Origin: Xylographa opegraphella
Taxonomy: Eukaryota
Direction: 5' to 3'
DNA length: 64,000 nucleotides
NCBI GenBank assembly: GCA_022813865.1
Contig: JALDZX010000003.1
Span: forward strand, 434,001 to 498,000
Below the pieces are notes generated by a model. That model ran no database searches, was not told the DNA's origin, and worked only from the letters and a program-made list of their open reading frames with translations. Of the stretch, positions 13,637 to 19,938 are shown one piece after another. A program made the position numbers and the translations under genes. The first letter of the stretch is position 1. Every line of letters begins with the position of its first letter.

Positions 13637-15255
13637 CTATAGTTTAGCTTTCTCACCCGGACCCACTAAAGGGTCGTAGACACCAAGGCCAAGTGTATCC
13701 GCAGGAACCGACGTTGAGTGTAAGCTCAGACCACGTGTATCTACCAGCGTTGGATTGAGCTGATCAATGCTGGAGCAGCCAATCAACCGCATGTTCATCT
13801 CCATCTCATCCTTTAGGAGCTGCATCGCGCGATCAACTCCGGGTAACCCGTAAGCGCTCATTGCAAATAAGAACGGTCTGCCGATTCCAACGCCTTTAGC
13901 ACCAAGGCATAGAGCTTTGATAATATCAGTCGCTCGTCGGACGCCACCATCAACGTAGATCTCGATTCGGTTTTCCCAACCACGTTCACGTAGAACAGGC
14001 ATTACCTCGGAAAGAACTTCTATGCCAGATCTCGCGAAGTCAAGCTGCCGGCCTCCATGGTTAGAGAGTACGACTCCCTGGACACCAACTTCGATGGCCC
14101 TGATCACGTCTTCTACCCTTTGGACGCCCTTCAATATGATGGGCATTTTCGTAATGCTTAGAAACCACGGTATATCCTTCCAGCTAAGAGAGGGATCGAT
14201 GAATGAGGAAATGGCCCTTGCAGCTCCCTGGGAACGATCGACATTGTCACCACCTGTGTTTTGGACGTTGGAGCCCACGTCTGAGAATTTGCTTCGCATG
14301 TCTTTCTCACGTCTACCAAGCTGAGGGGCATCCACAGTGATAAATAGTCCTTTACATCCACGCTTCTCAGCGTGTTCGACAATGCGTTTCGTGATCGCGC
14401 GGTCCTTGTTGACGTAAAGTTGAAGCCATTGGGTCTGATCTCCCTGGGCTTCATCTACAATCTCATCGAACGAGCAGCTAGCAAGCGTCGGAATCATCTG
14501 TATTACATTGTGTTTTTTTGCACCTCTCGTCAAGATGACTTCGCCTTCTGGATTGCCCAATTTCCCAAGTGCTGTCGCGGTGACATAGAAAGGTATATCA
14601 ACTTTCGTTCCTAGCATAGTTGTCGAAAGATCAATTTTTTCAACGTCTATCAGGACCCTCGGGCGAAACCATATCTTATGGTATGCTGAATGATTCTCCC
14701 GCATAGTCTATCTCGTTTATTAGTATTTTTCGACGCTGCGATTTTGCTGGCCTTACTATTTCGTCGTCTGCGCCACTAGAATAGTATGCCCATGCAGTCT
14801 TTTTCATCACCCGTCTTGCCACCGCCTCGAAGTCCATGAGGTTATAGCATTGTTCAAGTATTGGCATCCGCTTTATTCTCTCTTGTCTTTCTTGCTCGTC
14901 CGGGTCTTCCTCTTCCTGCTCCTTCTCGATGGTACTCATGTCTACATCACCCAGATGCTTGGACTTATCGAGGTACTTGTCAAGAGTATCCGGAGGGTGA
15001 ATGGGTGCATACGTTTCAGTAGCATCTTTGCCTGCATATTTGAGGATTATTTTCGGTCCCCCTGGTGAAATATCAGTATGGGCGGACAGACGTGATCCGG
15101 AGGGAAATGCTACCTGGATGTTCTGGCATGAATTCTGTAACGTCATATGCTTTACCATGTATAATCACCCAGCAATCTTTCTCATTGTTATGCTTCGCCA
15201 CCTCATCGCCGTGCAATTTCCCGCCCTTTGGCTCTGAGGAACTTTCGTGATTCAT
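13637..15255 (-). CDS. CYB2: Flavocytochrome b2 / L-lactate dehydrogenase (cytochrome b5 heme domain plus FMN alpha-hydroxy-acid dehydrogenase domain)
   Basis: [26 protein letters not shown] heme domain; [27 protein letters not shown]; ends AKL*. Confidence 0.92.
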
Positions 15256-16094
15256 CTTGTAACGAGAGTAAAACACTTGGATGGGAAAATAAATCAGAGA
15301 AACAAGGAATTTCTCAATTCAACGATTATGACAGGATAATCGTTCAATAACTATCAAGGTTAAATACACGCGATAACGATGGAGGATGGTTAAGTGAGAA
15401 GTGTGATGGCAGAAAACGGGACCTCAGTTTGACATAGCAACAGCTCACAGTTCTATGACATGATTCAAGGACGGCAGTTTCCTTTTAGCATGGAGCCAGA
15501 TCGGTCGAGAGGAGGGGTTGAACGGGAGCGGGTTCGCAGAGATCCCTCGGAACCAGAGATGCACGTTTTGCGGAGAGATGTGGGGTCGAGAAATAGGCTG
15601 GTCCACCCCCTGTTCGCCGCTGCAGCCGCTTGTGGAGCGGCTCTGGCACTCGGAACGACCATGAAGCAAAAGATTCTGGTCCCATCCACGTTGAGACGTG
15701 AAGCTCAAATCCATGGATTCATGACCTCCGTACAGGAGCATTTTGAGTGAAATATCATCATTGATCCGTGGAACACCGACCACTCCGTGTTTGGCAACGT
15801 GACCATGAGTGATGACGCAGCTTCCCAAGCGGGCGGAGAGGGCTGAAACCTTCTCTCGGGCAAGCGTGAATCATACATGGCACGTGTGACACGATAGACG
15901 CGACCGGCATTCAGACAAGAAGCCTCGAGACTCCTGCTGTATATGTCTGCTGGCGCGACTTTGAAAGTGTGCAATTTACTGGCATTCTCTCAACGACTAT
16001 CGCGGGCGAATAGTGGTGTCCGTTTTGATACCGATCATGGAATTCAAGGCAAAGCATCTCTGAGATTTGAGTGCATCTCGATCAAGCCTTTATA

Positions 16095-17082
16095 ATGTCT
16101 AATAGCCTCGAAGCCAAAATTTGCGTCCTTGGCGCCCAGTAAGTCACTGAAGACAATAACTTTTGCGTCTCAAAGACTAATGGAGGTTGTAGAGGCATGT
16201 CCAGTCTTTCCCAATCTGCTGTCCATGAACTGACACTCGATTTCTACAGGCGTCGGCAAAACATCTCTCGTCCAGCGTTACGTCAAAGGTACCTTTACGC
16301 CTCCTACAACGACTTCAACCATCGGCGCATCGTTCTTGACGAAGAGGGTTCTTGATGTTGATAGCGGTTCCACCGTTCGTCTTCAGATATGGGATACAGC
16401 GGGCCAAGAACGATTCCGAAGCATATCAAAGCTCTATTACCGTGGAGCATCGGCTGTCATCCTTGTCTACAGCATCATCGACGAACAGAGCTTCAATGAA
16501 ATGGGCCGTTGGCTTCAAGAAATCAAGAAAAACCTTGGAGAGGATATTATTGTACACGTTGTCGGCACAAAGAGTGACATTATTGCCCAAGATCCCAACC
16601 TAAGGAAGATCCCATTCGAGCGCTGCATAGCGTACGTTGCTGAGCAATTACACCCTACACTAGCTTCCACACCCCCAGTGACCGCGGGCGGGACTGGCAA
16701 TACGCATAGCTTAGACAGTAAGCACAGCAGTCGTTTTTGGGGGCAGGATATTGGCTGGGATATCTGCCACGAGATCAGTGCTTCTTCCGGAGAAGGCATC
16801 GAGGAGGTCTTCCGGGTCATCACACGAAAATTGGTCGACCAGAAACACAAGCGAGTGGAGTTGGAGCATGCCTTGGAGAATGGTATCACACCTGCCACTG
16901 AAGGCGGCCGTTCAGGGTATTTCGACCGACCTGGAGATGATGGTCGGGGAAGCTTTCGGATTGGCATTGGGGACAAACGAAGGAGCTGGCTAGGATTCCC
17001 GACACCGAGCATTGGCATAGGAGACGAAATACAAGCCGCAGGCGGAGGAGCAGGGAGGAGAAATAATGGGAGATGTTGTTGA
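16095..17082 (+). CDS. Rab-family small GTPase; exons 16095-16138, 16193-16194 (2 nt), 16250-17082
   Basis: MSNSLEAKICVLGAQGVGKTSLV, TIGASF, WDTAGQERF, YYRGA, VGTKSD, EISA, C-terminal CC prenylation motif. Confidence 0.9.
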
Positions 17083-17540
17083 AGTGTTGCAAAGGGTCGT
17101 TGCGGAAAAACAAACCCCCTAGGAAGTACTCACGCCTTCATGTATTCATGTGCGATTTGTATAACATTCTTCCATGTAAGCTGCTGTAATAGATTATAAG
17201 AACAGATCCAATGACAGCCGTTATGTATTGCTGTAGCCTTCAGTAAGAAAGTCTAGTCGCCTCAGAAACAACAGATATCTTGAAGGTGGGGACGAAGAAA
17301 TCGAAAACAAAGCAAATTAGTAGATGGGGTTTGCTTGGCAAAAGCACAGTTTGAGATCCCTGTGCCTGGCAGAAGCACAATGACGTCTTGTCGAGACGCT
17401 GGCCATTTCCAGGTTCGCGACTGGGGCGTGAGTGTTTTCAAGGCAGTTGTTTCCTGCAACACTGTTATAATACACTGGCAAGCACGGCCAAGTGAATCGT
17501 CTCACTACTAGCTTTTCGTGGCTATCTGTCAGACACTTTC

Positions 17541-19938
17541 ATGGCCTCCAAACCGAAGGGCACTGCCCTGTCGAACTACAATGTTGACTATGTGATAAGC
17601 TACCGCTTTGTAGATACAGGTATGTCCGATCTCGACAGCATACTGGACTGCTAGCTATATACTGAGCTGACGTTCTTAGGCAAATTACCTGCGGCGAGAC
17701 AATTCCAAAAACTTATCCAAGCATTGGCACAGCTTGGTTTCACGCTTGAAGTACGCAACGGGGATAATTGCTCTTTGCTGGTGTTCGTGAAAGCCGACAA
17801 CGACAAACGATTCAACAATGAAGTCTACAGGTCAAGGTGCGTTACGAGCTGTTCGTTAACCTGAGAGATTATGAATTGATCTTTAATCAGGGTGAAGGAT
17901 TGGCTCAATGGAGTACGAGCAGCTCAGCCGGATAAGGAGGCATACAACTCGCTAGCGGTTGATTCAATGACCGAGGCTGAACGGTATCGTATCATCTATC
18001 AAATGATCACGAACCCGAAGGAGGAAGGTGGAGCAGGAATAACGCCGAAGGAGGGTGAATGGAAGGATGTCGAATCTATATTTCCACTACACGACATCGC
18101 GCACAACAGAGAATGGGTCAAAGACTGGAGCATGAAGACATTCTTGAAGATTGAGGATCTAGACGAGATAAGGAATCGTTTCGGCGAAAAGGTAATGAGT
18201 CTACCTAACTGAATTCTTGGAACGACTAATGAAAAAACAGATCGCCTTCTACTTTGCGTTCACCCAATCCTACTTCACGTTCCTCACGTTTCCTGCAGCT
18301 TTTGGCTTTTCCGCCTGGGTCCTCCTTGGTCACTTCTCACCTATTTACGCCATAGTAAGCACTTTCTGGTGCGTTGCGTTTGTCGAGTATTGGAAGCATC
18401 AGGAGCTGAACTTGGCTATTCGCTGGGGTGTGAAAGGTGTCTCTGCTATACAAGAGAAGAGAAGAGACTTCAAACATGAAAAAGAAATGAGAGACCCAAC
18501 AACCGGAGAAACTGTGCAAGTGTTTCCAGCATCCAAGCGGCTTGCACGTCAGGCCTTAGGTATCCCATTTGCCTTGCTTGCATCTTTGGCGCTGGGAAGT
18601 CTCATTGCTACCTGCTTCGGCATCGAGATCTTTCTCTCTGAGGTCTATAGTGGACCCTTCAAAAGCGTTTTGGTATGTTGTCTAACTCCCAAACAAATGT
18701 GATGTGGTGGTGCTTATCATTTAAAGGTTTATTTACCTACTGGCCTCTTGACAGTTTTCGTTCCGACTCTGACAACTCTCCTGACAGGCGTAGCTACCAG
18801 ACTCAATGACTACGAGAATTGGGATACGAATGAAAGCTACCAATCAGCTCTTACTCAGAAAACATTCGTTTTGAATTTCATTACCGGATATCTCCCAATC
18901 TTTCTAACGGCATTTGTCTACATACCATTTGGCAGTCTCATTGTCCCGTACTTGGACATCTTTCACCTTACCGCCAGGCCTTTCGCTACGTCTGAAAAGC
19001 AGTTGACCTCGCCTAAGGTCGGGTTCGAAATCAATCCTGCCAGATTGCGCAAGCAAGTGATATATTTCACGGTTACCGCTCAGATTGTCAATTTTGCACT
19101 GGAGAATCTCGTCCCCTATCTGAAGCGCCAAGGGTTTCATAAATATCAGGAGATCAAGACCGAACGAGCGGCGAAACAAGGCGGTGCAGCCCCAGGCGCT
19201 ACCGTCAATGACCACCCAGAAGAAGCAGAATTTCTCACAAGAGTCAGGGGCGAGACTGAACTTGACGTGTATGATGTGACTGCTGATCTCAGAGAGATGG
19301 TTCTTCAGTTTGGCTATCTAGCTTTGTTTTCCGTTGTTTGGCCATTGACGCCTGTATCATTTCTCGTCAATGATTGGATCGAGCTACGAACAGATGCAGC
19401 CAAGATCTGCCTCCAAACGCAGCGACCAACACCTGCTCGGGCGGACAGTATCGGTCCATGGGTAGACAGCTTAGGATTTCTGGCATGGTTAGGAAGCATT
19501 ACGAGTGCAGCACTCGTGTACTTGTTTAGCAATGATGGCATCGGTCCTGATGGAACACCCGCCACCATCAAAGGATGGGCCCTGCTTCTAACGATATTCT
19601 TTTCGGAGCACACATACCTTGTGGTGCGGCTTGCTGTACGAACTGCAATCTCCAAATTAGATTCCCCAGGAATGCAGCAGGAACGGGCCGAAAGGTTTAT
19701 GGTTAGAAAAAAATATCTTGAAGAGACAATGGGTGAAAATGCGATGGAGCTTCCACCAACGAAGGCTCCGGAGATCACAAGGGCATCACTCGAGGAGGAT
19801 GCGCGCAATGATAGTTTGAGGACCAGCGATCCGGAGGAACACTTCTGGCATCGACAGTTGGGATGGGAAGAATCGGTAGAGATTGGAGTGTCGCTCATCG
19901 ATAAGATGGGGACAGAGGAGGGCAAAAAGACTCAATGA
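17541..19938 (+). CDS. IST2: Anoctamin/TMEM16 (Ist2-like) lipid scramblase/channel, multi-exon
   Basis: VDYVISYRF, IFPLHD, LDEIRNRFGEK|IAFYFAF, ELRTDAAKI, RADSIGPW and multiple transmembrane segments. Confidence 0.9.

Follow-up and report, generated by a model that had tools for sequence, protein, structure and literature searches.

A Rab GTPase gene lies on the plus strand between an ATG at 16095 and a TGA at 17080-17082 of the window (the whole stretch of DNA that was analysed, 64 kb long), where positions 15600-17600 were inspected. Its large exon, starting at 16250, is an open frame of 277 codons that ends with a C-terminal CC before the stop. The translation of this exon matches the Pfam Ras family (PF00071) with an E value of 2.3e-36 and is also matched by TIGR00231 (small_GTP). 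The nearest solved structures are those of Rab21, Rab5 (Rab5A) and Rab1 (Rab1A), with E values of about 1e-27. Among 7202 database relatives, the best-matching proteins come from Lecanoromycetes, which are lichen-forming fungi; the top full-length relative is 80% identical, and P0075, a fragment of 193 aa, is 92% identical. Some of the relatives carry the source names small GTP-binding protein, RYL2-like and yptV5-like. Judged by its sequence, the gene is a Rab/Ypt GTPase with its nearest relatives in Lecanoromycetes.

The large-exon translation contains WDTAGQERF (G3), GTKSD (G4) and the terminal CC, where we take DTAGQE to define G3, [NT]KxD to define G4 and a C-terminal double Cys to be a prenylation motif. 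Every invariant residue of a family alignment of 20 sequences is kept in this exon. Exon 1, the start codon and the 277 downstream codons are intact, and the exon-1 peptide matches the N-termini of orthologues. Contigs of the runs X2 and X3 were aligned at 80% likeness and cover parts of the large exon, the intron region lying outside them. All 12 listed differences from the X2 contig, which is 208 nt long, of low depth, from the same study and about 88% identical over 16375-16574, are at the third position of a codon, a pattern that an orthologous Rab under purifying selection would show. The intact exons and the third-position changes thus fit a gene under selection, and would still allow a very recent inactivation.

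The gene is flanked upstream by a cytochrome-b5-like heme-binding domain on the minus strand (14676-15318), which is split over two open frames matching positions 3-36 and 32-73 of the PF00173 profile. This split indicates that an intron interrupts the region of the heme-binding motif in the neighbouring gene. Downstream, on the plus strand, several open frames from 17541 to 18702 and beyond encode a protein of the anoctamin/TMEM16 type with Anoctamin_N and Anoctamin domains.

The 5' end of the Rab gene is divided at the P-loop as follows; the 2-nt exon is a proposed feature.

16095..16138, plus strand: exon 1, from the ATG, 14 codons and CA (bases 1-2 of a Gln codon), ending GGC GCC CA
16139..16192, plus strand: intron unit 1, 54 nt, GT-AG
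16139-16144, plus strand: GTAAGT donor of unit 1
16175-16181, plus strand: branch-like motif GACTAAT of unit 1, with A16180 12 nt before the acceptor G
16190-16192, plus strand: TAG acceptor of unit 1
16193..16194, plus strand: proposed 2-nt exon AG, base 3 of the Gln codon and base 1 of a Gly codon
16195..16249, plus strand: intron unit 2, 55 nt, GC-AG
16195-16200, plus strand: GCATGT donor of unit 2
16229-16234, plus strand: branch motif ACTGAC of unit 2, with A16233 16 nt before the acceptor G
16247-16249, plus strand: CAG acceptor of unit 2
16250..17082, plus strand: large exon, from the P-loop (GC GTC GGC AAA ACA) to the terminal CC and the stop codon (TGA, 17080-17082)

The gap between exon 1 and the large exon is 111 nt long; in ten relatives the orthologous intron measures 42-63 nt. 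Each of the two units within it carries its own donor, branch motif and acceptor at normal spacing, and the candidate exon, in the string TAG/AG/GCATGT, is flanked by an AG on one side and a GC donor on the other. The donor of unit 1 matches CAG/GTAAGT at seven of nine positions. The GC donor of unit 2 matches it at six of nine, and does so equally before and after the removal of unit 1. GC-AG introns are usually rare in fungi. Unit 2 resembles other introns of this class in having GC at +1/+2 and the other donor positions near the consensus (AG/GCATGT); the one thing that sets it apart is that it would follow immediately on a 2-nt exon. RNA folding gave z-scores of -1.0 for unit 1, 0.35 for unit 2 and 0.27 for both together, with no sign of a special structure.

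A preliminary description of this DNA had reported two units of 54 and 55 nt in the 111-nt gap, and all of the elements that it named are found at the positions listed above. It had also stated that joining exon 1 directly to the large exon would shift the reading frame, and that inclusion of the AG would restore CAA GGC and with it the G1 box GAQGVGKT. The computed products agree with both statements. Splicing of the outer GT (16139) to the outer AG (16249) gives 49 residues followed by a stop, and the P-loop consensus GxxxxGK[ST] is lost. When the 2-nt exon is kept, the consensus is present as GAQGVGKT and the product is 292 aa long, with a single terminal stop and with residues 1-27 the same as those of the relative P0036.

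All GT and GC donors and all AG acceptors between 16098 and 16330 were enumerated, with one or two introns allowed. There are 9 single-intron and 149 two-intron solutions that are in frame, and among them only the combination of 16139-16192, the AG and 16195-16249 yields a GAQGVGKT identical to that of the orthologues. Each of the nine single-intron solutions loses residues of the beta-1 strand or of the P-loop and uses a poor donor (GC or GTCCTT). The flanking exons are out of phase, and no single canonical intron joins them with the conserved motif kept.

The interior of the gap was shuffled 1,000,000 times with the outer donor and the last branch motif and acceptor held fixed. To be counted as equivalent, a shuffled interior had to contain a YAG/RG/G[TC].. 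site restoring the frame and the residues, preceded by a branch motif at a distance of 7-30 nt, and neither unit could be shorter than 40 nt. Such a rescue was found in 31 of the 1,000,000 shuffled interiors under loose rules and in 6 of 1,000,000 under strict rules. A loose pattern of two tandem intron units has a single match in the 64-kb window, namely the Rab locus, and between 0 and 3 matches per shuffled strand in controls (mean about 0.75; 20 shuffles of 64 kb). Because this loose pattern is not rare by chance, the weight rests on the exact place of the tandem units and on the residues that they restore. Scanning for introns by pattern alone was uninformative: one such scan matched shuffled DNA as often as the actual window, and a second gave hundreds of candidates. 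A strict scan of the window for introns that join open reading frames gave 17 candidates in all, with lengths of 40-125 nt, and none in reversed-sequence controls.

The proteins of 120 relatives were examined at the P-loop, the closest one (P0075, 92% identical) being left out at the DNA level. In 45 of them, which are spliced models or transcripts, the exon-1 peptide runs straight into the P-loop. Twelve have an insertion after GAQ(G) following the exon-1 peptide. Ten of these insertions are unspliced read-throughs that start with G and then K, M, T, R or I, and end immediately before GVGKT, as expected of G/GTA...AG/GC. The implied introns are 42, 48, 48, 48, 51, 54, 54, 54, 57 and 63 nt long. 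The remaining two insertions (P0049 and P0084) are partial mis-predictions. A further 35 relatives start inside the P-loop or close to it, their sequence being unrelated as far as GVGKT, and 29 start downstream of it. Three of the 35 (P0069, P0108 and P0117) appear, from codon possibilities worked out by hand, to have exon 1 in another frame and single introns of about 64, 52 and 67 nt. In the deposited models of four named lichen-fungus records (P0049, P0053, P0080 and P0084) the P-loop intron is wholly or partly treated as coding, showing that this intron is often mis-annotated even where it is a simple single one.

The single short intron of the relatives is in phase 1 and splits the Gly codon between G and GC, which is the site of unit 2. 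A second unit at the position of unit 1 was found in none of the relatives with a readable boundary (P0075 being left out). The conserved two-intron arrangement that the preliminary description had proposed to look for among orthologues is therefore not seen: every relative with a readable boundary has one intron, and the arrangement looks lineage-specific. The same description had held that the 2-nt exon and the GC donor are both required to make the protein. This appears to stand, as the combination is the only one that restores the P-loop, is rare by chance and has its unit 2 at the intron site of the relatives.

More distant orthologues were found in two other collections. A metagenome scan with generic Rab motifs gave at least 80 loci. 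Those that are orthologue-like among the matches listed are L001-L004, L007 and L008, with 51-75% identity, and a close lichen relative is absent among the loci listed. A scan of prokaryote genomes gave one fungal-type orthologue, L081, the other matches being Asgard and other Rab-like genes. Five distinct orthologous loci (L001, L003, L004, L007, which is the same as L008, and L081) have no intron at the P-loop site and read CAG or CAA followed by GGC or GGT there; L002 starts downstream of the P-loop and is thus uninformative on this intron. In L001 (2099 onward) an apparent intron is situated a few codons further on, where ...LVHR is followed by GTTAGT, indicating that lineages differ in where introns lie in the 5' part of this Rab gene. 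L081, which is 53% identical over all 277 residues, and L088, a second Rab-like gene, are on contigs of a record titled Ferrimicrobium sp. MAG. Their sequences point to the presence of eukaryotic contigs in this bacterial-labelled bin.

The comparison with the relatives suggests how the two units may have arisen. Unit 1 has the look of an additional intron that sits 2 nt ahead of an older one. The simplest history is likely to be that unit 2 is the old intron common to the relatives, whose donor would have changed from GT to GC, and that unit 1 would have been gained later, 2 nt upstream of it. Copies of unit 1 or unit 2 elsewhere in the 64-kb window were not found beyond chance matches of 8-12 nt, and the two units are not significantly alike (global alignment score of -4, compared with -9.7 +/- 3.5 for shuffles), so that the window gives no sign of a tandem duplication or of a repeated element. 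The origin that the Fusarium report (PMC12940212) proposes for a 1-nt exon, in which the loss of bases at the exon end is rescued by a cryptic exon, was also considered for the Rab locus. It would need a pre-existing cryptic site, which is unlikely in view of the shuffles (31 in 1,000,000).

The assembled string at the junction of exon 1 and unit 1 is CAGTAAGT. If two bases had been lost from the assembly at this point, the true string would be ...CAAG/GTAAGT, and the whole 111 nt would simply be one intron of the ordinary kind, in phase 1. Exon 1 of the relatives does end with CAx G before GT, and the loss of one A and one G would produce the observed string. However, a separate build of the probable source run includes a contig of 113,562 nt, which has no differences and no gaps over 15950-17250, at a word depth of 161. 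A 2-nt assembly error at the junctions, a possibility that the preliminary description itself had named, is in this way countered base for base; since the contig probably comes from the same reads, the agreement excludes an artifact of the assembler or of polishing, not every error. A loss of two bases would also leave the internal TAG/AG/GCATGT as a pure coincidence, and we regard it as very improbable.

Four further arrangements of the locus have to be weighed against one another. With some confidence, we infer that the 111 nt are removed as two introns that leave the 2-nt exon AG between them. The outer signals are canonical and the 111-nt gap is inside the range of intron lengths in the window, so the whole gap might instead be spliced out in one step by the outer GT...AG, with the internal AG unused. 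The mRNA would then be frameshifted, with a computed product of 49 residues before a stop, and the gene would be a recently inactivated copy or a null allele. Consistent with this, the two-unit arrangement is shared by no relative. Against it, no more than about 3 in 100,000 random interiors would be expected to contain internal signals by which the frame is recovered together with exactly the right residues, and exon 1, the start codon and the 277 codons downstream are all undamaged and conserved. Moreover, a 54-nt insert that starts with GTAAGT, ends with TAG and has a well-spaced branch motif resembles an intron, not a disruption. One-step removal as the whole account of the locus is thus unlikely, although it is the most serious of the competing explanations.

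Two GT-AG introns could also enclose an 11-nt middle exon (16193-16203), with a second donor GTCTTT at 16204. This solution is in frame, gives 295 aa with GAQGMSSVGKT, in which the GxxxxGKT string is kept, and might be chosen by a gene predictor that accepts only GT-AG introns. However, its donor at 16204 matches the consensus at four of nine positions, compared with six of nine for the GC donor, and lacks the purine at +3 and the G at +5. The three extra residues are found in none of the 120 relatives in spliced form, which makes an exon of this length hard to credit. A single non-canonical GT-AC intron (16139-16247), excised in one step, leads to the same mRNA as the two-intron arrangement, as the preliminary description had correctly observed, because 16248-16249 is again AG. 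Spliced aligners would report such an intron, and mRNA reads cannot distinguish between the two, their mRNAs being identical. GT-AC ends are not known as a recognised intron class of the U2 spliceosome, and the locus has complete canonical signals for two introns; a GT-AC intron is accordingly most doubtful. Two nested units, as in a stwintron, were tried and rejected: contiguous removal of 16139-16247 ends with AC and that of 16140-16248 begins with T, leaving no external GT/GC...AG intron.

In the two-intron arrangement, the gene would encode a working Rab/Ypt GTPase of a fungus of Lecanoromycetes type, and its pre-mRNA would undergo two separate splicing reactions, each on a short intron, with the 2-nt exon remaining between them. 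Unit 1 (16139-16192) would be spliced out as an ordinary 54-nt intron and unit 2 (16195-16249) as a 55-nt GC-AG intron, while the AG at 16193-16194 would be retained in the mRNA and complete the CAA (Gln) and GGC (Gly) codons of GAQGVGKT. As the acceptor of unit 1 is only 2 nt from the donor of unit 2, the reactions are probably ordered, as in recursive splicing, rather than simultaneous. Unit 1 would most likely be removed first, during transcription, creating the next donor ...CAAG/GCAUGU. YAG acceptors are preferred over GAG. If unit 2 were removed first instead, the acceptor UAG would have to win over a GAG two bases further on.

Short fungal introns are recognised by intron definition, that is, across the intron (as described in PMC7138796). 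The outer pair at the Rab locus, GTAAGT (16139)...ACTGAC...CAG (16249), is by itself a fully canonical intron. Because this pair is strong and the 111 nt lie within the 40-125 nt of introns in the window, one-step, frame-shifting removal must compete with the two shorter reactions, and some non-productive splice product is likely to be formed. This competition might conceivably provide the putative on/off control that the preliminary description had suggested. The 54-nt intron gained 2 nt upstream of the old P-loop intron would have made the 2-nt exon obligatory, its inclusion would be set by the order and kinetics of the two competing reactions, and one-step removal of the 111 nt would lead to a premature stop, so that the level of the Rab protein could follow the ratio of the two. 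The exon would then be the first of 2 nt to be described in a fungus, and its origin could be read from the relatives. We consider this proposal as a whole, control included, to be speculative and rather unlikely.

The closest known parallel is in the CYP621A P450 genes of Fusarium, in which two short introns enclose a 1-nt exon that has support from RNA reads (Nelson and Syed 2026, PMC12940212). These reads imply that the fungal spliceosome can process exons this small. Both cases are fungal and have a conserved motif split by exons that are out of phase and not directly joinable, a tiny exon between an AG and a donor, and wrong gene models. The Fusarium gap has about double the length of a usual intron; the 111 nt of the Rab gap exceed the 42-63 nt of the orthologous intron in ten relatives but lie within the 40-125 nt of the intron candidates in the window. 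The Fusarium exon, as reported, is 1 nt long (AG/G/GT), has a GT donor next to it and shows conservation across at least 20 orthologues in Fusarium, whereas the proposed Rab exon is 2 nt long, is followed by a GC donor and has relatives with a single intron. The same report gives exons of 2-5 bp as known in Arabidopsis, Drosophila and humans. Arabidopsis APC11 has a single-nucleotide exon (PMC4674806), which, like the exon proposed here, is ultra-short and required for the reading frame, and which that report describes as constitutive; unlike the Rab locus, APC11 is a plant gene and its exon is 1 nt long.

Two other arrangements resemble the Rab locus in part. Stwintrons, as described for Pezizomycotina and Lipomyces (PMC7138796), share with it two short U2-type units in one gap, consecutive reactions and intron definition. 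In a stwintron, however, by that account, one of the splice signals of the external intron is split by the internal intron and no base stays behind in the mRNA, while the Rab units are situated side by side and 2 nt would be kept. Zero-nucleotide recursive splice sites (PMC13149111) have in common with the Rab locus a donor almost directly after an acceptor and an ordered, stepwise splicing. These ratchet points are described as AG/GT sites with 0 retained bases, in animal introns of tens of kilobases; the Rab locus, with 2 nt between acceptor and donor and a gap of 111 nt, does not belong to this type. A literature search within a limited collection found no nuclear 2-nt exon in fungi.

A gene structure with a tiny exon is thus rare and already documented, and the particular features here are the length of 2 nt, the GC donor, the site in the P-loop and the simpler relatives. 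Gene predictors that accept only GT-AG introns, as well as spliced aligners, would produce a frameshifted, truncated or GT-AC model at this locus. The expectation that automated annotation would err here is borne out by the frame logic, and the locus would be a useful annotation test case for genomes of lichen fungi. If the two-intron arrangement is true, the Rab gene has the second fungal exon shorter than one codon. This sub-codon exon would be the first with a length of 2 nt, as well as the first to have a GC donor next to it, and it would be situated in the P-loop, the most conserved motif of the GTPases. It would also be a natural substrate for studying the minimal spacing of introns and the order of their removal under intron definition. 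Since the relatives retain the simpler one-intron state, unlike in the Fusarium case, the locus would record the origin of such an exon, a new intron placed beside an old one.
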